A DNA stretch of 39,106 bases from a virus. Positions 5,878 to 37,063 of the stretch are shown here, in pieces (positions within the stretch are counted from its first letter, which is position 1; every line of letters starts with the position of its first letter). The stretch lies in UHGV virus genome UHGV-1488538; one strand, 5' to 3'. A program made the position numbers and the translations under genes. The notes beneath the pieces are model-generated. The model was not told the origin of the DNA, ran no database searches, and worked only from the letters and a program-made list of their open reading frames with translations.

Positions 5878-6462
5878 TTATTGTTTGTTTTTTTCGTTCT
5901 GGTTGATGACAAATTCAATGTAACTTTCGATCTTTGCTTTCTCGGTTTCGGGTAACAATGCGTAGCGCGAGCGGTCATAGTTGATAGTCGCAGGGTCGTG
6001 CGGGTGAATCAGTAGTTCATATCCGTGACGCCCGAATGCGGATGCAACATTCTCCAGGGTGGAAATGGAAACGCTGACCTCATTGTTTAACAGGCGACTG
6101 ATTGTCACCTGGGCGACGCCGGATGCGCGGTGAAGTTTTCCCTGAGTTGAAAGGTCGCGGCTTTCACTCATCCAGCGTTCCAGGTTGTGAGCTGCCAGCT
6201 GACCAATGTCGCTTGGGCCGACAGGCTGAAAACCTTCCTGAGAAAGCGAGCGATCGATATCAAGCCAGTTACGGGGTTTATTGGCGGCAGCTTCAATTTT
6301 TCGCGCAACCTGGTCGCCGATAACCTTCTTGCCAAGAGCCCAGCGGTTTACCAGATTTGCCTGAGTTCCAAGTTTTTCTGCCATCCGCGTCTGAACACCA
6401 TTGAATTCACGGTCGATCAAGTCGTTGAGATTTTGCCTGCGGACGTCCTGGATACTTTTCAT
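5878..6462 (-). CDS. Immunity repressor, tandem HTH (XRE-like), no peptidase S24 domain
   Basis: 194 aa; two HTH-like segments (TRMAEKLGTQANLVNRWALGKK and ASGVAQVTISRLLNNEVSVSISTLENV); divergent from Cro-like gene with operator cluster between. Confidence 0.75.
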   Translation of the reverse strand: MKSIQDVRRQNLNDLIDREFNGVQTRMAEKLGTQANLVNRWALGKKVIGDQVARKIEAAANKPRNWLDIDRSLSQEGFQPVGPSDIGQLAAHNLERWMSESRDLSTQGKLHRASGVAQVTISRLLNNEVSVSISTLENVASAFGRHGYELLIHPHDPATINYDRSRYALLPETEKAKIESYIEFVINQNEKNKQ

Positions 6463-6517: not shown

Positions 6518-6532
6518 TTACCCAACAGGTAA
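6518..6532. promoter_or_regulatory. Operator TTACC-CAACA-GGTAA (OR-like site 1)
   Basis: Perfect palindrome between divergent repressor and cro-like genes. Confidence 0.7.
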
Positions 6533-29078: not shown

Positions 29079-31553
29079 ATGAGACAGGAATGTATACAAG
29101 CGGTTCAGCAGGCGGCGCAGCGCATGTTAACGGCGCGAGAAATACAGAACATTGAAGACCGCATTTATCGAAATATGCGCTCCATTGCTCGTGATGACCC
29201 TATGTCGTGGCGACAACTTTCCGAATCAGAGCGGCTATATCGAGCAGCACAATTGGCATCTGAAGAATTACAGCGAGAAGCGGCATTAAAGAAACGTCGT
29301 GTGGCTCTCACTATAGCCGCGCGTCAGAGATTGGATAAATTTATCAATAGCTATCAAGGGGCTGATGGGAAACTTGGCGCTCTTAACCGTACTATAGCTT
29401 TTAATGCAGACGGTAAATCTAATTTCCTCTCTGTTGAATCCAGAACAAAAGCCACCCGTGATTATGCATTGAGTCAATTGCAGGAGGCATTCGAAGCAGT
29501 TGATCCTCGCTTTTTTGGTCTGTTTGAAGATGAAGCGGGCGTACGTGACCTGGTATATGAAATGCGGGGGCAAAATACTGGCAATGCTAAAGCAAGAAAC
29601 GGTGCTAAGGCGTGGAGAGAAGTTACAGAGCTGCTGCGCCGCCGGTTTAATGATGCTGGTGGGGACATTGGCTATCTCGAAAACTGGGGGATCCCTCAAC
29701 ATCATTCTATGGAAAAGGTTGGGGCAGTATCAAAGGATAAGTGGGTTAGCGATGTTATAGGTAAGCTGGATCGCAAATATTATATCCGAGCCGATGGACA
29801 ACTGATGAACGATGCAGAGTTGTCTTCATTTCTTGGAGAGGCTTATAACACGATCGCTACTGGTGGGCTGAATAAGCTTACTGATACCGGAATGCGAATT
29901 TCCGGCGCACGTGCTAACCGTGGTAATGCATCACGACAGATACATTTCAAAGATGCAGATTCCTATCTGCAATATCAGCAACTTTATGGCGATCGCTCTC
30001 TATGGGAAATCATGGTCTGTCACCTGGAAGGTATCAGTAAAGATATTGCACTGGTGGAAACATATGGCCCAAACCCCGATCATGTTTTCCGCTCTCTTCT
30101 TGATCAGGTGAAGGCAGAAACGGCAACAGTTAACCCGAGTAAAACCGGTAAAGTCGAGCGGCTGGCGAACAACACAGAGAATCTGTACAACTTTATTTCC
30201 GGAAAGACACAGCCTGTAGCGAATCCGCACATCGCGCGATGGTCTGACAATATCCGCAACTGGCTGGTTGCCAGCAGACTCGGATCCGCGTTGCTGTCAT
30301 CGTTCTCTGATCTTGGAACCATGTATCTGTCTGCGAAGGTTACCAACCTTCCAATGAACCAGTTATTCCGCAACCAGCTTGAAGCTATGGACCCAACGAA
30401 CCGTACAGAACTTGCGCGGGCGCGCCGCGCTGGTCTGGCGATGGAATCTCTACTTGGCAGCGTTAACCGCTGGGCGATGGATAATATGGGGCCGTCAGTG
30501 TCTCGTTGGGCGGCAACGGCGGTAATGCGTGCCAGTGGGCTTACAGCATGGTCAGATGCGCACAAGCGCGCCTATGGCGTAACCATGATGGGAAGCCTGG
30601 GAGAAGTAGTGTCACGGACACCAGACCTTCGTAGCCTCGATGACTCTGATTTTCGTATCCTGAAAAGCAAAGGGATTACTGACACAGACTGGAGCGTATG
30701 GAAGCTGGCGAAACAGGAGGACTGGGGGAACGGTAATAATACGATGCTGACACCGGAAAGCATTATGCGTATCCCTGATTCAGCAGTTAAACATCTTGGT
30801 GAGCCTGAACGCGTGAAATTTGAGGCAATGCGTAAACTGCTCGGTGCCGTAACTGAAGAAGTTGATATGGCTGTTATTACACCGGGAGCACGTGAGCAAC
30901 TGATAACCGGTTCTGGTATTCAGCGTGGAACATGGAAAGGTGAATTAACGAGAAGTGTTTTCCTGTTTAAATCGTTCCCTATCTCGGTTGTTATGCGTCA
31001 CTGGTCACGCGCTATGGGTATGCCGTCTGCTGGTGGGCGTGCGGCATATATTGCGACGTTTATTGCCAGTACGACCATTCTTGGCGCTTTGTCGCAGCAA
31101 CTTAACGACCTTGCGTCTGGTCGTAATCCTCGAGAGATGACAGGAGAAGATGCCGCAAAATTCTGGCTTGGTGCTCTACTGAAAGGTGGTGGTCTTGGCC
31201 TTTACGGTGACTTTTTATTGTCAGATCACACTAGGTACGGAAGCGGCGCGCTGGCGTCGATGCTTGGCCCGGTAGCTGGTCTGGTTGATGACGTAGTGAA
31301 GATTGCTCAGGGCATACCGTTAAATGCTGTGGAAGGGAAGAGTGAGCAGACTGGTGGTGATCTGGTGAAGCTGGGGAAAGGTTTGATGCCTGGTGCGAAT
31401 CTCTGGTACTTGAAGGCGGCTCTCGATCACATGATCTTTAACCAGATGCAGGAGTATTTTTCACCAGGCTATTTGCGTAAAATGGAGCAACGTTCGAAGA
31501 AAGAGTTTAACCAGACATACTGGTGGCGACCACAGGATGTCACTCCGCAATAA
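29079..31553 (+). CDS. Internal virion/ejection protein (gp16-like)
   Basis: 824 aa; gene order. Confidence 0.55.
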   Translation: MRQECIQAVQQAAQRMLTAREIQNIEDRIYRNMRSIARDDPMSWRQLSESERLYRAAQLASEELQREAALKKRRVALTIAARQRLDKFINSYQGADGKLGALNRTIAFNADGKSNFLSVESRTKATRDYALSQLQEAFEAVDPRFFGLFEDEAGVRDLVYEMRGQNTGNAKARNGAKAWREVTELLRRRFNDAGGDIGYLENWGIPQHHSMEKVGAVSKDKWVSDVIGKLDRKYYIRADGQLMNDAELSSFLGEAYNTIATGGLNKLTDTGMRISGARANRGNASRQIHFKDADSYLQYQQLYGDRSLWEIMVCHLEGISKDIALVETYGPNPDHVFRSLLDQVKAETATVNPSKTGKVERLANNTENLYNFISGKTQPVANPHIARWSDNIRNWLVASRLGSALLSSFSDLGTMYLSAKVTNLPMNQLFRNQLEAMDPTNRTELARARRAGLAMESLLGSVNRWAMDNMGPSVSRWAATAVMRASGLTAWSDAHKRAYGVTMMGSLGEVVSRTPDLRSLDDSDFRILKSKGITDTDWSVWKLAKQEDWGNGNNTMLTPESIMRIPDSAVKHLGEPERVKFEAMRKLLGAVTEEVDMAVITPGAREQLITGSGIQRGTWKGELTRSVFLFKSFPISVVMRHWSRAMGMPSAGGRAAYIATFIASTTILGALSQQLNDLASGRNPREMTGEDAAKFWLGALLKGGGLGLYGDFLLSDHTRYGSGALASMLGPVAGLVDDVVKIAQGIPLNAVEGKSEQTGGDLVKLGKGLMPGANLWYLKAALDHMIFNQMQEYFSPGYLRKMEQRSKKEFNQTYWWRPQDVTPQ

Positions 31554-31561
31554 AAGGAGAT

Positions 31562-31687
31562 ATGATGGTTCAAATAACTTTTATTGTACTAATATGTGCA
31601 GCGTTTTTATGCTATTCATACATTTTGATAAAAATGGGTTTCAATTGGAATCTCTGTTGCGTGCAGCGGCATGGTTCGGCTTTGTAG
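31562..31687 (+). CDS. Small hydrophobic peptide (41 aa), putative membrane protein
   Basis: AAGGAGA RBS then ATGATG; product MMVQITFIVLICAAFLCYSYILIKMG...; alternative overlapping track ORF 31537-31725 in another frame. Confidence 0.3.
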   Translation: MMVQITFIVLICAAFLCYSYILIKMGFNWNLCCVQRHGSAL

Positions 31688-31772
31688 TATTCGGAATTGT
31701 ATTGTTCGGAAGAATAATAAAATAACTAGTTAATTTGTGGATTGGTGCTGTTTTTCCATGATAGGGGTAATT

Positions 31773-32153
31773 ATGAGAAAAGTATTTTTGATTTTTGGAT
31801 TTATGCTTCTCGTTGGATGCCAGTCAGCTGCACAGTTTGAAAGAAATATGCTTACGTGGCGCGGGCAGAGTATAGACGCAATGGTTCAGCAGTGGGGGTA
31901 TCCTCAGGGAGAGCTTACATCTCCAGATGGAAACAGAGTGTATGTTTACTCAAGCTCTGGTAGTTATAACGTACCACAAACCACAACGTATAATACTACG
32001 TCTAATCTAATTGGTAATACTATATATTCAAACACATACGCAACAACTGATGGCGGTTATACACTCCATTTCAGTTGCTCTGTTTACGTTGAGTTTGGTG
32101 CTGATAAGATTATTAAAAATGTTACATGGCGCGGTAATAATTGCGTTGCGTGA
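31773..32153 (+). CDS. Lipoprotein (signal peptide plus lipobox LLVGC), moron
   Basis: MRKVFLIFGFMLLVGCQS...; AGGGG RBS; AT-rich relative to surroundings; track ORF from 31737. Confidence 0.7.
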   Translation: MRKVFLIFGFMLLVGCQSAAQFERNMLTWRGQSIDAMVQQWGYPQGELTSPDGNRVYVYSSSGSYNVPQTTTYNTTSNLIGNTIYSNTYATTDGGYTLHFSCSVYVEFGADKIIKNVTWRGNNCVA

Positions 32154-32161
32154 CATGTCAC
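32150..32161. repeat. 12-bp palindrome GTGACATGTCAC (copy 3 of 3)
   Basis: Exact; overlaps lipoprotein stop codon, abuts terminator. Confidence 0.7.
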
Positions 32162-32162
32162 A

Positions 32163-32186
32163 GGCCGCTTTCGCGGCCTTGTTTTT
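32163..32186 (+). terminator. Rho-independent terminator (GGCCGC-tttc-GCGGCC-TTGTTTTT)
   Basis: 6-bp GC stem plus T-run. Confidence 0.7.
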
Positions 32187-32225
32187 AACGAATGCCACCG
32201 CCGCCAGGGCGGGAATCCGCAGACA

Positions 32226-32248
32226 CAAAAAAGCCCGCGTCGCGGGCT
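32226..32248 (-). terminator. Rho-independent terminator on minus strand (GCCCGCG hairpin plus U-run)
   Basis: Convergent with the previous terminator; follows the 211-aa gene. Confidence 0.65.
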
Positions 32249-32255
32249 TAAAGAA

Positions 32256-32891
32256 CTATTTTATTGGCAGCTTATGCTTTGAAATTATGGCCAATCTGTT
32301 TTGGAAGTTTTCCGCATCACCCCACAACCAGGTTTCACCTTTCTCAAGCTCTTCCTCGTTATTCATCTCTATCAGCTCGCATGTCATCATGTCGTAACCA
32401 TAGAGGTGGAGGCCAAGTTCCAGTGCGTCATACATGCGAGCCTGCCAGAACGACATGCCTTCATGAGTCTGGTTGCGATCTGACACGATGATATCGTACC
32501 GTTCCAAGAGGTAGTTCATGAAGATGATGCCGGCGAAATCATGAAGCACAGCACGATGCTTAGGCTTCTGGGTTCTCCATACCAATATCTGCGTGACAGG
32601 ACGGCAGTTAAGATAGCTGTCAGGCTGGATAATGACACGATTGTAATACACTACCTCTTCGGTGAGGTCATTTATCAATGACAGTTCAAAGTGCGCCTGT
32701 GGAATCTCGCCTTTCTTACGATCGTCTACACGGACAACGCGGTATCCAGGAGCCAGAGAAACGCCTTTGACATCAGATGTGACATCGTTGCCGTTCACTA
32801 ACTCTGAATACAGGGCGCGGTTGTCTGGAGTTTCGTTCAGATGAGCGAAAACCTCAGTTACCTTTGCCGGATTCAGCAGTTGTTGTGGCAT
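32256..32891 (-). CDS. Hypothetical protein (211 aa), immI-region gene of unknown function
   Basis: ORF track; own upstream operator sites. Confidence 0.6.
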   Translation of the reverse strand: MPQQLLNPAKVTEVFAHLNETPDNRALYSELVNGNDVTSDVKGVSLAPGYRVVRVDDRKKGEIPQAHFELSLINDLTEEVVYYNRVIIQPDSYLNCRPVTQILVWRTQKPKHRAVLHDFAGIIFMNYLLERYDIIVSDRNQTHEGMSFWQARMYDALELGLHLYGYDMMTCELIEMNNEEELEKGETWLWGDAENFQNRLAIISKHKLPIK

Positions 32892-32932
32892 ACATCACCT
32901 CATAATATATAGATGCTTCTTTAAGCGGGATT

Positions 32933-32947
32933 TACCATTAGGGTAAA
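32933..32947. promoter_or_regulatory. Operator TTACC-ATTAG-GGTAA upstream of 211-aa gene
   Basis: Perfect palindrome about 42 bp upstream of start; coordinates +/-1. Confidence 0.65.
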
Positions 32948-33032
32948 TGAACTATCCGAATGTTAAACGCCTTCGTACTCGTCAAATTTTCTCATGTGGG
33001 CTCCTCCTGTATCGGTGCCTAATCGCTATGGA

Positions 33033-33047
33033 TCACCCGTAAGGTAA
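33033..33047. promoter_or_regulatory. Operator-like TCACC-CGTAA-GGTAA
   Basis: 1 mismatch. Confidence 0.45.
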
Positions 33048-33120
33048 TAGTACTCTATTCACCCCCCTGTCTGCAATCGTACAGAATTATTTAAAGGCAC
33101 ATCCCTGTGCCGCCGTTCTG

Positions 33121-33831
33121 TCAGAAGAACCCTGCCTTGTCGTTGATGTACTCCGCGTGGGTCTGGATATCACGCAGGCATTTGCTCACACCGACGATGT
33201 AGCAGAACATGGTGGTCAGCTCCGCCGCCGCGCCCGATACATCGTGCCCGTCTTCCTGTAACTGGTTCAGCAGATTCATCAGCAGTGAGTTCTCCGTCAG
33301 GCCGAGAACACCAGACGGCGAATGAATCAGGCTGCGGTAGCCGGGCTTCAGTGGGGCGCTGTAGGTTTTGTTCTCTATCTTCATCGCCTGCATTACTGCT
33401 GACGCCGTGGCGTTGGCTACCTGGTCGGCAACCATCTTTATGCGTTCTTCCTGCGGGAGCGAGTTTTTAATGTAACTTCCGGTGCGGCGGATCTGAGGAA
33501 GAACCTCACCTGTAACCCATTTACGAAAGCGGTAGGGGATAGTGCCTGGTGTCACTGCGTCGCGGCAGCGGAGGATCAGTGTGTAGAGGCCTGACTCGGA
33601 GATAATGTTGATCTCTTTTACTCGGCTGTCAAAAATTGCACGATGTTCATGCCCTATGTTGAACATAGACCTTTCATCATCATCCAGTTTTTCAAGTGCT
33701 TGGGTGACGTTTTGGATACGCAGCGCACTACAAACGTCTTGGGCTACAAACCATGGTTGGCCATCGATAATGATGGAACGGATAGGGTTAACAGATTCAA
33801 ATTTGAAGATGGCAGTTTGAGCATTAGCCAT
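33121..33831 (-). CDS. Antirepressor (Bro-N/KilA-N N-terminal domain plus C-terminal domain)
   Basis: N-terminus FKFESVNPIRSIIIDGQPWFVAQDVCSALRI is a classic Bro-N/Ant signature; start at ATG 33831 with GGAG RBS (track GTG at 33846). Confidence 0.8.
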   Translation of the reverse strand: MANAQTAIFKFESVNPIRSIIIDGQPWFVAQDVCSALRIQNVTQALEKLDDDERSMFNIGHEHRAIFDSRVKEINIISESGLYTLILRCRDAVTPGTIPYRFRKWVTGEVLPQIRRTGSYIKNSLPQEERIKMVADQVANATASAVMQAMKIENKTYSAPLKPGYRSLIHSPSGVLGLTENSLLMNLLNQLQEDGHDVSGAAAELTTMFCYIVGVSKCLRDIQTHAEYINDKAGFF

Positions 33832-33859
33832 GGTGGTTATCTCCACTTAGTGATTTTAA

Positions 33860-33890
33860 TCACCACCGCAACGCCAATTACTGGTGGTGA
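33860..33890 (-). promoter_or_regulatory. Leader hairpin TCACCACC/GGTGGTGA with alternative pairing to ACCACC at ant start codon
   Basis: 8-bp inverted repeat; a third complementary hexamer lies immediately 5' of the ant ATG. Confidence 0.4.
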
Positions 33891-33986
33891 ACTGGACAAG
33901 GTTGGCGTACCGGCCTAAGTGGTACCGGCGTCCTTTCGGACCCCTGCCCAGCCCACCATAATTCGGATATAGCTGTGCTTAACGCA

Positions 33987-34010
33987 TAAAAAAACCACGT
34001 CTGGCGTGGT
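33987..34010 (-). terminator. Intrinsic terminator within ant leader (ACCACG-ccaga-CGTGGT plus U7)
   Basis: Hairpin followed by 7 T on minus strand. Confidence 0.55.
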
Positions 34011-34026
34011 ATGCGCCACTTAGTAA

Positions 34027-34128
34027 CCCGGGACGCCAATCCCGGCACTGGATTTTGCCAGTGCCCGATTACTATGGCACAAGAGGAGTGCGATGTAAAT
34101 TTACTGCAAAGGTAAATATAAGCACTCC
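34027..34128 (-). ncRNA. Candidate structured RNA / cis-regulatory leader upstream of antirepressor
   Basis: Three hairpins (34083-34128 AGGAGTGC...GCACTCCT; 34044-34065 GGCACTGG...CCAGTGCC; 34028-34045 CCGGG...CCCGG) then terminator; no ORF. Confidence 0.4.
34101..34115. promoter_or_regulatory. Operator-like TTACT-GCAAA-GGTAA inside leader hairpin
   Basis: 1 mismatch. Confidence 0.4.
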
Positions 34129-34146
34129 TATTGGTAATTTCAAATC

Positions 34147-34419
34147 TTATCTGGTTTGTTTTCGTAATTGTTCGGCACAATAGTCGAGATGTGTTTGCAG
34201 ATCCTGCATAGACATCTGTGAGCTGGTGACGTAGTTAATCAGTGCAGTCAGTTCGGCAAGTGGGCCATCGACATTAAATCCATCCTTATCGAGATCCCGG
34301 AGTAATTTCATCAAGTGCGATCCCTCCACCAGTGACCTGACGCCTCCCGGCGTGTGAATCCTTTCGGTAAATCCCTCTTCCAGTGGATAGTGATACTGCT
34401 GCATCTTAATCTTCTCCAT
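34147..34419 (-). CDS. Small protein homologous to antirepressor C-terminal domain; LexA-controlled (candidate SOS antirepressor)
   Basis: 90 aa; about 45% identity by eye to Ant residues ~170-241 (IH.P.GV..L.E.S.LM.LL..L..DG..V.G..AELT, D.QTH..Y); LexA box directly upstream. Confidence 0.7.
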   Translation of the reverse strand: MEKIKMQQYHYPLEEGFTERIHTPGGVRSLVEGSHLMKLLRDLDKDGFNVDGPLAELTALINYVTSSQMSMQDLQTHLDYCAEQLRKQTR

Positions 34420-34424
34420 GCAAT

Positions 34425-34444
34425 AACTGTATATTTATACAGTA
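34425..34444. promoter_or_regulatory. LexA (SOS) box AACTGTATATTTATACAGTA
   Basis: CTGT-N8-ACAG with AT-rich spacer, near-consensus; overlaps putative -10 of small ant-like gene. Confidence 0.8.
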
Positions 34445-34481
34445 GCAAATAATTTGTTTGCTATCCAGCACGTTTTGCAAA

Positions 34482-34496
34482 TTACCTGAAAGGTAA
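34482..34496. promoter_or_regulatory. Operator TTACC-TGAAA-GGTAA
   Basis: Perfect palindrome between LexA box and tailspike gene. Confidence 0.65.
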
Positions 34497-34600
34497 TATC
34501 TATTCATATTCACAGTCTTTCTATCCATATATGGTTTTTTGGGTAATAGAATAACCAGATATGCGGCGCAACGGGTGCTGCGACTATCTGGAGATTTAAC

Positions 34601-37063
34601 ATGACGGTCTCAACCGAAGTTGACCACAACGAATACACAGGTAACGGCGTTACGACATCATTTCCGTATACCTTCCGTATTTTCAAAAAATCCGACCTGG
34701 TTGTTCAGGTGTCTGACCTTAACGGTAACGTTACAAAACTAGTGCTGGATGCTGGTTATACGGTAACAGGGGCGGGAACTTATAGTGGCGGTGCAGTGGT
34801 TCTTCCGTCGCCGCTTGCTGCTGGCTGGCGAATCACGATAGAGCGTGTGCTTGATGTGGTGCAGGAGACTGATCTTCGCAATCAGGGAAAATTTTTCCCC
34901 GAAGTTCATGAGGATGCATTTGACTACCTGACGATGCTGATCCAGCGATGTTTTGGGTGGTTCAGACGTGCATTGATGAAACCATCTTTGCTTGCAAAAT
35001 ATTACGATGCAAAGCAAAACAGAATATCTAACCTTGCCGATCCATCACTTGAGCAGGACGCTGTAAATAATCGCTCAATGCGTAATTATGTCGATGCTGC
35101 AATCGCCGGAGTTATTGGTGGTTTTGGTTGGTTTATTCAGTATGGTTCTGGAGCGGTATACAGAACGTTCCAGGATAAGATGCGTGATGGTGTCAGCATT
35201 AAGGATTTTGGAGCTCAAAATGGAATCTTAAATGATAACAAGGATGCTTTTACAAAATCATTACATTCGTTTAGCAGTGTTTTTGTTCCGGAAGGGGTAT
35301 TCAATACATCTTTAGTTTCTCTTTCACGTTGTGGCTTGTACGGAACAGGTGGGGGAACGATAAAACAGTATGACAGAGATGGTAATCATCTGGTTTTTAA
35401 CATGCCCGATGGTGGCATGCTTAGTACGCTAACAATTATGGGAAATAAATCAGATGATAGTGTGCAGGGACACCAGGTGTCATTTTCAGGTGGCCATGAT
35501 GTATCGGTTAAAAATATCAGATTTACAAATACGCGAGGACCAGGATTTAGCTTGATCGCTTATCCGGATAATGGTATTCCGTCAGGTTACATTGTTAGAG
35601 ATATAAGAGGAGAGTATTTAGGGTTCGCAAATAATAAAAAAGCAGGTTGTGTGCTTTTTGATTCATCGCAAAATACGCTAATTGATGGTGTGATAGCCAG
35701 AAATTATCCTCAGTTTGGTGCAGTGGAACTTAAAACAGCAGCAAAATATAACATTGTCAGCAATGTTATTGGTGAAGAGTGTCAGCACGTTGTTTACAAT
35801 GGAACTGAGACGGAAACTGCCCCAACGAATAATATCATTAGCAGTGTAATGGCTAACAACCCAAAATACGCCGCAGTAGTTGTTGGCAAGGGGACTGGTA
35901 ACCTGATTTCGGATGTGCTGGTTGATTACTCTGAATCGGACGCAAAGCAGGCGCACGGCGTCACCGTTCAGGGAAATAATAATATTGCCAGTAATATTCT
36001 AATGACTGGGTGTGATGGGAAAAATGAATCAGGAGATCTGCAGGCATCTACAACCATTCGTTTCTTAGATGCTGCACGCAGTAATTATGCGTCAATATTC
36101 CCCATGTATAGTTCTTCCGGCGTGGTTACCTTCGAGGAAGGGTGTATCAGGAACTTTGTTGAAATTAAACATCCGGGTGACAGAAATAATATTCTGAGTT
36201 CTGCATCAGCGGTGACTGGTATTTCCAGTATAGACGGCACTACAAATAGCAATGTTGTTCACGTCCCTGCGCTTGGTCAGTACGTTGGGACTATGTCAGG
36301 GCGTTTTGAATGGTGGGTTAAATATTTTAACCTTGCTAACCAGACGCTTGTTTCTGCAGATAAATTCAGAATGCTTGCTGAAGGCGATGTATCTCTGGCT
36401 GTGGGAGGCGGTATAAGTTCGCAATTGAAATTATTCAATAGTGATAATACTAAAGGCACTATGTCGCTAATAAATGGAAATATTCGAATATCTACTGGAA
36501 ATTCAGAATATATACAGTTTTCTGATTCAGCCATGACACCATCGACAACGAATACTTATTCTCTTGGGTTGGCTGGTCGTGCATGGTCGGGGGGATTTAC
36601 CCAGTCAGCGTTTACGGTGCTGTCCGATGCGCGTTTCAAGACTGCTCCAGAGGTTATTGATGAGAAAATACTGGACGCATGGGAAAGAGTGGAATGGGTT
36701 TCATACCAGTACCTTGACAGGATCGAAGTGAAAGGTAAAGACGGAGCAAGATGGCACTTTGGTGCAGTTGCGCAGCATGTTATCAGTGTATTTCAGAATG
36801 AAGGCATAGATGTGTCACGACTGGCATTTATCTGTTATGACAAGTGGAATGAGACCCCGGCAGAATACAGGGATGTGACGGAAGAAGAGCATTCTGCAGG
36901 AGTTTACCCACTTATACAGACAAAGGTTCTGGTACGCGAAGCCGTCGAGGCTGGTGAATGTTACGGTATCCGTTATGAAGAGGCTCTGATTCTGGAATCT
37001 GCGATGATGAGACGCAGGGTTAAAAAGCTGGAAGAGCAAGTTTTGCAATTAACAGGGAATTGA
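34601..37063 (+). CDS. Tailspike with beta-helix depolymerase-like centre and C-terminal self-cleaving chaperone (S74-like) domain
   Basis: 820 aa; C-terminal LSDARFKTAPEVIDEKILDAWERVEWVSYQY... and coiled-coil tail match the intramolecular chaperone autoproteolysis domain. Confidence 0.8.
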   Translation: MTVSTEVDHNEYTGNGVTTSFPYTFRIFKKSDLVVQVSDLNGNVTKLVLDAGYTVTGAGTYSGGAVVLPSPLAAGWRITIERVLDVVQETDLRNQGKFFPEVHEDAFDYLTMLIQRCFGWFRRALMKPSLLAKYYDAKQNRISNLADPSLEQDAVNNRSMRNYVDAAIAGVIGGFGWFIQYGSGAVYRTFQDKMRDGVSIKDFGAQNGILNDNKDAFTKSLHSFSSVFVPEGVFNTSLVSLSRCGLYGTGGGTIKQYDRDGNHLVFNMPDGGMLSTLTIMGNKSDDSVQGHQVSFSGGHDVSVKNIRFTNTRGPGFSLIAYPDNGIPSGYIVRDIRGEYLGFANNKKAGCVLFDSSQNTLIDGVIARNYPQFGAVELKTAAKYNIVSNVIGEECQHVVYNGTETETAPTNNIISSVMANNPKYAAVVVGKGTGNLISDVLVDYSESDAKQAHGVTVQGNNNIASNILMTGCDGKNESGDLQASTTIRFLDAARSNYASIFPMYSSSGVVTFEEGCIRNFVEIKHPGDRNNILSSASAVTGISSIDGTTNSNVVHVPALGQYVGTMSGRFEWWVKYFNLANQTLVSADKFRMLAEGDVSLAVGGGISSQLKLFNSDNTKGTMSLINGNIRISTGNSEYIQFSDSAMTPSTTNTYSLGLAGRAWSGGFTQSAFTVLSDARFKTAPEVIDEKILDAWERVEWVSYQYLDRIEVKGKDGARWHFGAVAQHVISVFQNEGIDVSRLAFICYDKWNETPAEYRDVTEEEHSAGVYPLIQTKVLVREAVEAGECYGIRYEEALILESAMMRRRVKKLEEQVLQLTGN

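Follow-up and report, generated by a model that had tools for sequence, protein, structure and literature searches.

What does this temperate phage carry directly behind its antirepressor gene, and what controls the expression of that cargo? The question is raised by a 211-aa reading frame in a window of 39,106 nt, the whole stretch of DNA that was analysed, which is a complete genome of a phiV10/epsilon15-like (Uetakevirus) temperate podophage of an E. coli prophage type. The tailspike, injection-protein and holin genes of the window resemble their counterparts in phiV10-type phages. The genes and RNAs that bear on the question are the following.

273-1529: integrase gene.
5878-6462, minus strand: HTH_3 repressor-like gene.
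33121-33846, minus strand: antirepressor gene (ant), Bro-N, 241 aa (Pfam Bro-N, E 1e-19; PHROG 130 Ant, E 2e-57).
33880-33963, minus strand: C4 antisense RNA upstream of ant (Rfam, 66 bits; gathering score 45).
33988-34064, minus strand: IsrK-like RNA upstream of ant (Rfam, 67.7 bits; gathering score 50).
34025-34077, minus strand: c4 a1b1 targets upstream of ant (Rfam, 44.1 bits, slightly below the gathering score of 46.7).
34143-34115, minus strand: likely c4-ant promoter-like site TTGAAA-17-TATATT, from the promoter scan, its -10 fused to a copy of the operator (34101-34115).

The C4, IsrK-like and a1/b1 matches all lie between the promoter-like site and the Bro-N ant gene, whose 241-aa product has many antirepressor matches in Pfam and PHROG. 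The operator at 34115-34101 begins with the final T of the -10. These matches support the assignment of the antirepressor block to the P1 type of immI, with C4 RNA and its targets upstream of ant; the block had been called immI-like in a first-pass annotation, and the C4 and IsrK Rfam matches bear this out and place it with P1, not P22. As in the immI of P1/P7 (c4 antisense RNA - icd - ant), C4 RNA and targets precede an antirepressor, a repressor-type operator is found at the promoter-like site of the operon, and, as with the dispersed C1 operators of P1/P7, numerous copies of the operator are spread over the genome ahead of separate units. The operator differs from that of P1 in being a symmetric palindrome of 15-17 bp, the P1 operator being an asymmetric 17-mer, and the Ant of the window differs in being a Bro-N protein; P1 is not known to have a GNAT-fold gene behind ant. 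An Rfam scan of positions 31500-34700 found no RNA family in the spacer between ant and the 211-aa gene. A Trp-leader match at 32225-32332 in Rfam was set aside as chance (21.6 bits against a gathering score of 41, E 0.36).

The spacer between ant and the 211-aa gene is 229 nt long. The gene and its immediate signals are listed below.

32256-32891, minus strand: 211-aa gene with ATG start (the cargo; GNAT-fold, orphan sequence).
32896-32901, minus strand: Shine-Dalgarno sequence GAGGTG of the 211-aa gene, from reading of the sequence; leader and Shine-Dalgarno sequence are the same in lineage L092.
32231-32249, minus strand: intrinsic terminator AAGCCCGCGACGCGGGCTT followed by a T-run, directly 3' of the 211-aa gene, from the terminator scan.

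The 211-aa protein matches PHROG 1349 over its full length (E 3e-78). Its close homologues form 94 clusters across Enterobacterales, the family counts 434 representatives (50% identity, E<=1e-3), and the exact protein is found on 716 contigs. The gene was compared with its closest diverged copy, that of L092, which encodes a 96% identical protein, and dN/dS is 0.03 at dS 0.60. Because of this ratio and the hundreds of homologues, the ORF is, by comparative sequence evidence, a real and strongly conserved gene; it lies downstream of the P1-type immI ant, and its earlier description as an uncharacterised accessory gene in the immunity-I block is upheld. A candidate named P0199 (1784 aa, 13 matched stretches) was dropped, its sequence being repetitive and eukaryote-like and its summed score spurious.

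Members of the family are found within and outside prophages. In Erwinia amylovora, the family member stands alone on the chromosome with ihfA and btuE on either side, outside any prophage and fixed; in Photorhabdus, a lone member is likewise situated outside prophage, near genes for a LuxR-type regulator, T6SS and RtxA. In Dickeya, the family member is part of a podophage-like prophage that has no ant. No conserved neighbour of the family gene was found across 40 chromosomal and 63 viral loci. Judged by this distribution, the family gene is a self-contained, widely transferred single-gene module, and the lone copies in Erwinia amylovora and Photorhabdus point to an advantage for the cell that does not depend on phage development.

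In the window the gene occupies a defined site. The corresponding slot of phiV10, the closest type phage, is empty: only ant, a 29-aa ORF and a terminator are found there. A head of ~90 nt after the ant stop codon, comprising a hairpin, a promoter-like site and an operator (O1), is present in about 336 E. coli records, where it follows several different kinds of antirepressor gene. Two features mark the borders of the slot in the window.

33096-33111, minus strand: conserved hairpin GGCACAGGGATGTGCC, then TTTAAATAATT, just past the ant stop codon; a weak terminator or RNA end.
32185-32226, minus strand: 13-codon in-frame remnant of a 53-aa ORF, from alignment with L015.

The hairpin GGCACAGGGATGTGCC falls below the T-run criterion of the terminator scan. 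In L092, it carries a compensatory double change (GGCGCA...TGCGCC), which supports the view that it acts as a structure, at the end of the ant unit.

The cargo that follows O1 varies among genomes. Allele 1, the 211-aa gene, is found in 12 genomes. Allele 2, carried by 93 of 5,426 complete E. coli genomes, encodes a 210-aa protein with 29% identity to the 211-aa protein (hhalign probability 99.9). Other cargo includes a DUF4760 protein, a YafO toxin together with a 59-aa ORF (phage TL-2011b), and further pairs of 69+288, 69+251 and 55+146 aa. In the compact alleles, the RBS and start codon of the payload lie 27-75 nt past the operator. The 3' terminator is common to all cargo alleles examined and is followed in most of them by a 53-aa ORF (WP_000708858 type), the ORF of which the window keeps the remnant listed above. 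A short repeat, GGGCGGCGG, occurs at either end of the cassette, and again at the junction in phiV10, where the site is empty. An association with antirepressors is also seen in IMG/VR, where an Ant-like ORF lies no more than 3 kb from the family member, typically directly upstream, in 39 of 63 loci.

As read from these alignments, the slot is built of a fixed head, an exchangeable payload and a shared intrinsic terminator tail, and the 211-aa gene is accessory cargo, or a moron, in this swappable slot downstream of ant. The arrangement is like that of the P2/P4 defence hotspots and of phage morons in that a short slot with conserved head and tail receives a swappable payload of one or two genes; like phage morons, the slot also has a promoter of its own (predicted) and a terminator. 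Classical morons are constitutively on, whereas the head described here bears a phage operator fused to the -10.

This operator belongs to a repeated element of the genome. Perfect copies of TTACC-N5-GGTAA number 9 in the window against 0.11 expected, a count reached in none of 100 shuffles, and 17 sites are found when at most one mismatch is allowed (0.52 expected). The 211-aa gene had been credited with operator copies of its own, and both sites prove to be genuine members of this strongly enriched 15-bp palindrome, of the same type as the operator at the antirepressor promoter-like site. They are listed here with the promoter-like site of the head.

32932-32946: operator O2, TTACCATTAGGGTAA, with perfect arms, 41 nt upstream of the start codon of the 211-aa gene.
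33033-33047: operator O1, TTACCTTACGGGTGA (minus strand), with one mismatch, within the conserved head of the slot.
33076-33047, minus strand: cargo promoter-like site, read by eye, with -35 TTGCAG (33076-33071), an 18-nt spacer and -10 TACTAT (33052-33047).

O1 is perfect in several alleles. O2 is present in the window and in IAI39, and is absent from the DUF4760 alleles; it travels with the GNAT-fold gene, and an equivalent single operator is found in L092, the Dickeya prophage, L101 and L111. Among the other copies in the window, the sites at 6518 and 6566 fall within the 154 bp that separate the HTH_3 repressor-like gene from a divergent 76-aa cro-like ORF, and pairs 62 bp apart bracket promoter-like sites (5744/5806 and 8849/8911). 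Others come directly after terminators and head further transcription units. This layout is the one expected of the operators of the main repressor, to which the palindromes are putatively assigned. Since the palindrome brackets the cI/cro-like region, the cargo is most likely held off by the prophage repressor.

In the cargo promoter-like site, the -10 ends in the T with which O1 begins, which matches the layout of the c4-ant site. The fusion of a phage operator to the -10 of the head predicts that the payload is off in the lysogen. The promoter scan did not call the site at 33047-33076; its -35 is weak, and a 7-bp deletion displaces the -35 in some alleles. The main reason to regard the payload as repressor-controlled is found in homologues of 64-89% identity (Dickeya and other phages), in which the palindrome overlaps a promoter-like site at -72 to -86, so that an operator-overlapped promoter-like site has been kept over this range of divergence. 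Read by eye, the site is TTGCAT-17-TAGGAT plus operator in the Dickeya prophage homologue and TTTGCA-17-TAGAAT plus operator in the L101 homologue; in the L111 homologue the operator lies inside the promoter spacer. The possibility that a promoter lies between O2 and the start codon was rejected, since the candidate hexamers TATATT/TATTAT (32909-32902) would place the transcription start within the Shine-Dalgarno sequence.

The earlier proposal that the 211-aa gene is co-regulated with the antirepressor is thus borne out in part. The two genes share the type of operator, and with it probably the repressor, but they look like separate units because the hairpin and a separate operator-fused promoter-like site intervene, and only ant lies behind the C4 RNA.

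The spacer further contains a small reading frame between the two operators, which are 101 bp apart.

32963-32995, minus strand: mini-ORF MRKFDEYEGV plus stop, 10 codons, with ATG at 32995.
33003-33008, minus strand: AGGAGG, the RBS of the mini-ORF, 7 nt before the ATG.

The 10-codon ORF and its strong RBS were correctly annotated (AGGAGG at 33008-33003, ATG at 32995). No AGGAGG-N4-9-ATG other than that of the mini-ORF is present in the window; since mononucleotide shuffles yield 1.7 per window, one occurrence is not unusual, and only its position within the 229-nt spacer is worthy of attention. The mini-ORF is 100% identical across six aligned alleles. In IMG/VR, it is unchanged in 28 of 29 copies, and an exact-match search with its 24-nt start found that all 29 end at the same codon; as exact matching was required, this common end is uninformative about a longer version that would mark the mini-ORF as a gene remnant. 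The sole change is non-synonymous, so that nothing points to coding constraint. From O1 across the mini-ORF as far as GATAGTT, the 211-aa allele and the DUF4760 alleles have an identical sequence, which is found in those two only; in the window, the similarity to the DUF4760 alleles ends exactly before O2. In L092, only one operator precedes the 211-aa gene; the proximal leader is the same, and the mini-ORF is absent.

The mini-ORF had been proposed as a possible leader peptide, which would control the gene behind it through attenuation or translational coupling. For this role speak its Shine-Dalgarno sequence, which is the strongest match in the window and correctly spaced, the invariance of the block across alleles, and the structure of the DUF4760 alleles, in which a strong terminator hairpin (ACGGGGCC-ATTA-GGCCCCGT-TTT) comes after the mini-ORF and directly before the DUF4760 start codon, and in which the folded leader has a z of -1.82. 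The DUF4760 allele may have an attenuator here. The leader of the 211-aa gene is different: the folded RNA of the window is no better than shuffles (z +0.94), the terminator scan found no terminator-like site at 32963-32891, and no alternative structure follows the mini-ORF. The segment is shared only with the DUF4760 cassettes, and the 211-aa gene of L092 and other lineages does without it. With an unstructured leader RNA and a non-synonymous sole variant, a leader-peptide role for the 211-aa gene is very unlikely, and the mini-ORF looks like a passenger or leftover of recombination, not a dedicated leader peptide of this gene. Recombination also offers the simplest account of the two operators and the mini-ORF together: a unit of operator plus GNAT-fold gene appears to have been joined behind a DUF4760-type head of O1 plus mini-ORF.

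The nature of the 211-aa protein is seen in its predicted structure. The first-pass annotation had recognised no motif in it, and sequence libraries likewise give no match. Pfam, NCBIfam, PADLOC and PDB sequences contain nothing similar to the protein, whether it is used as a single query or in profiles. When 103 diverse family members were compared with Pfam, only scattered lone chance matches were obtained, and none of the members hit a GNAT model. Among 5.8 billion proteins searched with a profile, no relative bearing any Pfam domain was found. Remote homology and structure prediction had been proposed as the way forward, and of these, sequence models give no assignment and structure prediction yields a GNAT-like fold.

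An AlphaFold2 model, built with 32 homologues as input, has a pLDDT of 85.8 and a pTM of 0.81, with only residues 1-6 disordered. Foldseek matches to the PDB agree on the GNAT fold at identities of 5-13%, and include NatD/Naa40, HAT1 and the acetyl-CoA-binding C-terminal domain of M. tuberculosis ICL2/Rv1916. The top match is a non-catalytic CoA-binding domain and most others are true transferases; GNAT toxins rank well below other GNATs. Among viral models, uncharacterised phage proteins of ~190 aa are the best matches, followed by annotated acyl-CoA N-acyltransferases. The order of secondary structure, with two helices, a four-strand meander, a long helix, a short strand, a helix, a hairpin, a helix and a strand, fits the GNAT core.

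The best-conserved motif of the family is S-D-x-x-Q-T-x-x-G-x-x-F-W at residues 137-149 (S137, G145, W149), which is modelled as strand-loop-helix and could be motif A or motif B. In the wide family, Y82, W105, G145 and W190 are conserved in at least 90% of members and W149 is invariant. The acetyl-CoA loop Q/R-x-x-G-x-G/A is not recognisable after strand 98-106, taken as beta4, where the residues R106-T-Q-K-P-K-H-R are free of glycine. An hhalign comparison of the family profile with E. coli RimI placed the conserved motif on motif A with a probability of 0.06, a null result.

The model gives good support to placing the 211-aa protein, strongly diverged as it is, within the GNAT (acyl-CoA N-acyltransferase) fold. 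It has the characteristic alpha/beta fold of the superfamily, but differs from known GNATs in that none of the 103 members is matched by a GNAT model of Pfam or NCBIfam, that an N-terminal helical pair replaces the usual beta1-first order, and that the glycine-rich CoA loop is unrecognisable, the conserved motif being S-D-x-x-Q-T-x-x-G-x-x-F-W. Because the canonical CoA loop is not recognisable and the best matches include a non-catalytic domain, catalysis by the 211-aa protein is putative only.

The explanation proposed here takes the reality of the gene, its fold, the anatomy of the slot and the enrichment of the operator as shown. It holds that the 211-aa protein is a repressor-gated accessory effector of GNAT fold, which uses or binds acyl-CoA and is directed against a host or competitor target during early lytic growth; we regard the chances of this reading as about even. 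The window arrangement would have come from a cassette of single operator plus GNAT-fold gene, joined to a DUF4760-type head of O1 plus mini-ORF. In this arrangement the hairpin would close the ant unit, and a weak sigma-70-like promoter with an O1-fused -10 would open the cargo unit. We infer the operator-binding protein and the timing of expression: the prophage repressor, bound to the operator, would keep the cargo off in the lysogen, and the cargo would be made with the early genes once the repressor is absent, as in fresh infection, or inactivated, as by induction or the action of Ant. Expression would run parallel to that of ant as a separate unit, and C4 RNA would have no effect on it unless the hairpin is read through. 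Use of CoA and the nature of the target are inferred likewise: the protein would bind acyl-CoA and acylate a target in the host or in a competitor, as an effector of the host-takeover or counter-defence type, or, as a less likely variant, it would merely sense acyl-CoA. A precedent for the counter-defence reading is AcrVA5, reportedly a phage GNAT acetyltransferase that inactivates Cas12a and thus a small phage-borne GNAT-fold protein acting against a host system. AcrVA5 differs in being much shorter; no sequence match or specific structural match to it was seen, and no CRISPR link was found.

Other readings assign the protein to the lysogen, to sensing, to toxicity or to the immunity circuit itself. 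A defence, exclusion or abortive-infection factor that guards the lysogen, through basal expression or by being turned on when a superinfecting phage inactivates the repressor, would suit a stand-alone, widely transferred single gene in a variable hotspot with conserved flanks, where a YafO toxin with its small partner and other small-plus-large pairs are also held. Variable prophage hotspots with small-plus-large gene pairs are a pattern typical of defence islands. This reading is nevertheless unlikely, given that PADLOC (v2, E<=1) gives no match for the 211-aa protein and none for its slot-mates, that the operator over the promoter-like site predicts repression in the lysogen, and that the gene has no partner and shows no sign of toxicity. 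Rather more doubtful is a non-catalytic, GNAT-like acyl-CoA-binding sensor or adaptor that couples a metabolic signal or protein partner to phage development. It fits the top structural match, but other structural matches are mostly true transferases, and the conserved S-D-x-x-Q-T-x-x-G-x-x-F-W together with the invariant Trp/Tyr residues looks like an active or ligand site.

A type II GNAT toxin of the TacT/AtaT kind, acetylating aminoacyl-tRNA with the mini-ORF or another small ORF as its antitoxin, is rejected as highly improbable because no partner gene is conserved in the 40 chromosomal and 63 viral loci. TacAT, AtaRT and KacAT have an adjacent, usually upstream, RHH/DUF1778 antitoxin, whereas the upstream ORF of the window has 10 codons only; its 10 residues are far too short for an RHH antitoxin, and L092 and all other lineages lack it. 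Lone copies of the family gene have been stably retained at core-genome positions, and toxin structures match far below other GNATs. A second antirepressor, which would bind and inactivate the prophage repressor, had been put forward on the first-pass annotation. The gene adjoins ant in the immI block and has the same operator type, but its product has no similarity to Bro-N, KilAC, AntA/B, ORF6N or P22 Ant in Pfam and PHROG, its fold is that of a GNAT, its homologues in Erwinia and Photorhabdus are lone chromosomal genes outside prophages, and the same slot holds unrelated cargo. The proposal is abandoned here as having hardly any probability left.

The preferred reading, a repressor-gated GNAT-fold effector, describes an ordinary type of feature, namely a moron-type GNAT-fold cargo in a variable prophage slot by a P1-type immI, and it does not overturn current understanding. 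A bolder version, which we consider an unlikely one, would see in the slot a repressor-gated cargo bay for swappable conflict genes (the YafO toxin pair, DUF4760 and both alleles of the GNAT-fold family) that fire only at repressor loss, and in the GNAT-fold family a new class of phage acyltransferase that, upon infection or induction, modifies a target in host defence or housekeeping, or even the repressor, as enzymatic partner of Ant. The family is common, with hundreds of clusters in Enterobacterales and phages, yet has no Pfam family, name or known function, and the literature search found nothing on the family, on the function of DUF4760 or on the operator. The GNAT-fold assignment gives it a concrete biochemical hypothesis, acyl-CoA binding and transfer. 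Slot-mates of the kind of the YafO toxin pair are more often met as defence or addiction cargo that lysogens express than as early anti-host functions, an observation that runs against the preferred reading, as do the lone chromosomal copies in Erwinia amylovora and Photorhabdus. The anatomy of the slot (~90-nt head, payload, shared terminator) provides a handle for mining accessory genes in phiV10/epsilon15-like prophages. If the operator truly gates the payload, the slot would show temperate phages timing conflict genes to the loss of the repressor.

Several features border the cargo cassette, which carries a 211-aa GNAT-fold gene in the swappable slot downstream of the antirepressor gene ant.

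~33118-33110 and ~32206-32198 in the window; ~2485-2500 in the phiV10 locus (L004): short direct repeat GGGCGGCGG
32185-32226, minus strand: MSADSRPGGGGIR, the 13 codons that remain, in frame, of a 53-aa ORF (WP_000708858)
31737-32153, plus strand: 138-aa ORF convergent with the cargo gene (PHROG 3716, function unknown)

The copies of GGGCGGCGG bound the entire cassette, and in the empty slot of phiV10 the junction consists of this repeat, an arrangement which suggests that the cassette was gained or lost through recombination between the repeats. The intact 53-aa ORF is signal-peptide-like and lies downstream of the cargo in most other prophages; in the window, the WP_000708858-type gene is shortened by an internal deletion. 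The neighboring 138-aa ORF, whose place in phiV10 is taken by a different small membrane protein, has a lipoprotein-type signal (…LLVGC) and may be one more accessory gene, for a surface or an exclusion factor.

Within the cargo family, all 32 close homologues examined begin with Met-Pro (residues 1-2; window 32886-32891), which is also the N-terminal consensus over 103 diverse members. Despite this conservation, residues 1-6 of the 211-aa protein are predicted to be disordered in the structure model.

Different payloads occupy the slot in related prophages (comparison loci designated L).

L013:2120-3195: small-plus-large gene pair, 69+288 aa
L014:2119-3194: small-plus-large gene pair, 69+251 aa
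L016:2106-2734: small-plus-large gene pair, 55+146 aa
L002:3076-3235, with equivalents in L012, L018, and L019: mini-ORF (10 codons), followed by a terminator and the start region of the DUF4760 gene

Searches of Pfam and PADLOC gave zero matches for the three pairs, which are possible uncharacterized toxin-antitoxin or defense pairs. In the DUF4760 prophages, a strong terminator hairpin lies ~20 nt 3' of the invariant mini-ORF and the start codon follows ~20 nt beyond the hairpin; since a promoter would not fit between them, mini-ORF and terminator together look like a leader-peptide/terminator attenuator.

Upstream of the slot lie the RNA elements of the immI block and a further ORF.

33880-34077, minus strand: C4 antisense RNA, a1/b1 targets, and IsrK (Rfam matches), upstream of the Bro-N antirepressor gene ant
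34147-34419, minus strand: 90-aa ORF preceding the C4 region (PHROG 450, E 3.5e-48)

Judged by these RNA matches, the block is of the P1/P7 type, with ant under antisense RNA control, and not of the P22 arc/mnt type. Homology of the 90-aa ORF to Ant proteins covers just their C-terminal portion, and it groups with Ant when ORFs around the family-member loci are clustered. This ORF, which may encode a shortened paralogue of Ant or a partner of the icd type, is served by a separate perfect operator copy (34482-34496).

That operator copy belongs to a dispersed set.

Window sites 216, 5744, 5806, 6518, 6566, 6903, 8849, 8911, 12256, 12274, 15463, 32932, 33033, 34101, 34482, 34714, and 37260: palindrome (A)TTACC-N5-GGTAA(T), 15-17 bp

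The 17 sites are scattered over the genome, ahead of separate transcription units, and are often located directly 3' of an intrinsic terminator or joined to a -10-like hexamer. Two pairs (5744/5806 and 8849/8911) are each spaced by exactly 62 bp, and one pair precedes the small terminase gene. As predicted operators, these palindromes would give the podophage a layout like that of P1, in which one repressor serves many dispersed operators.
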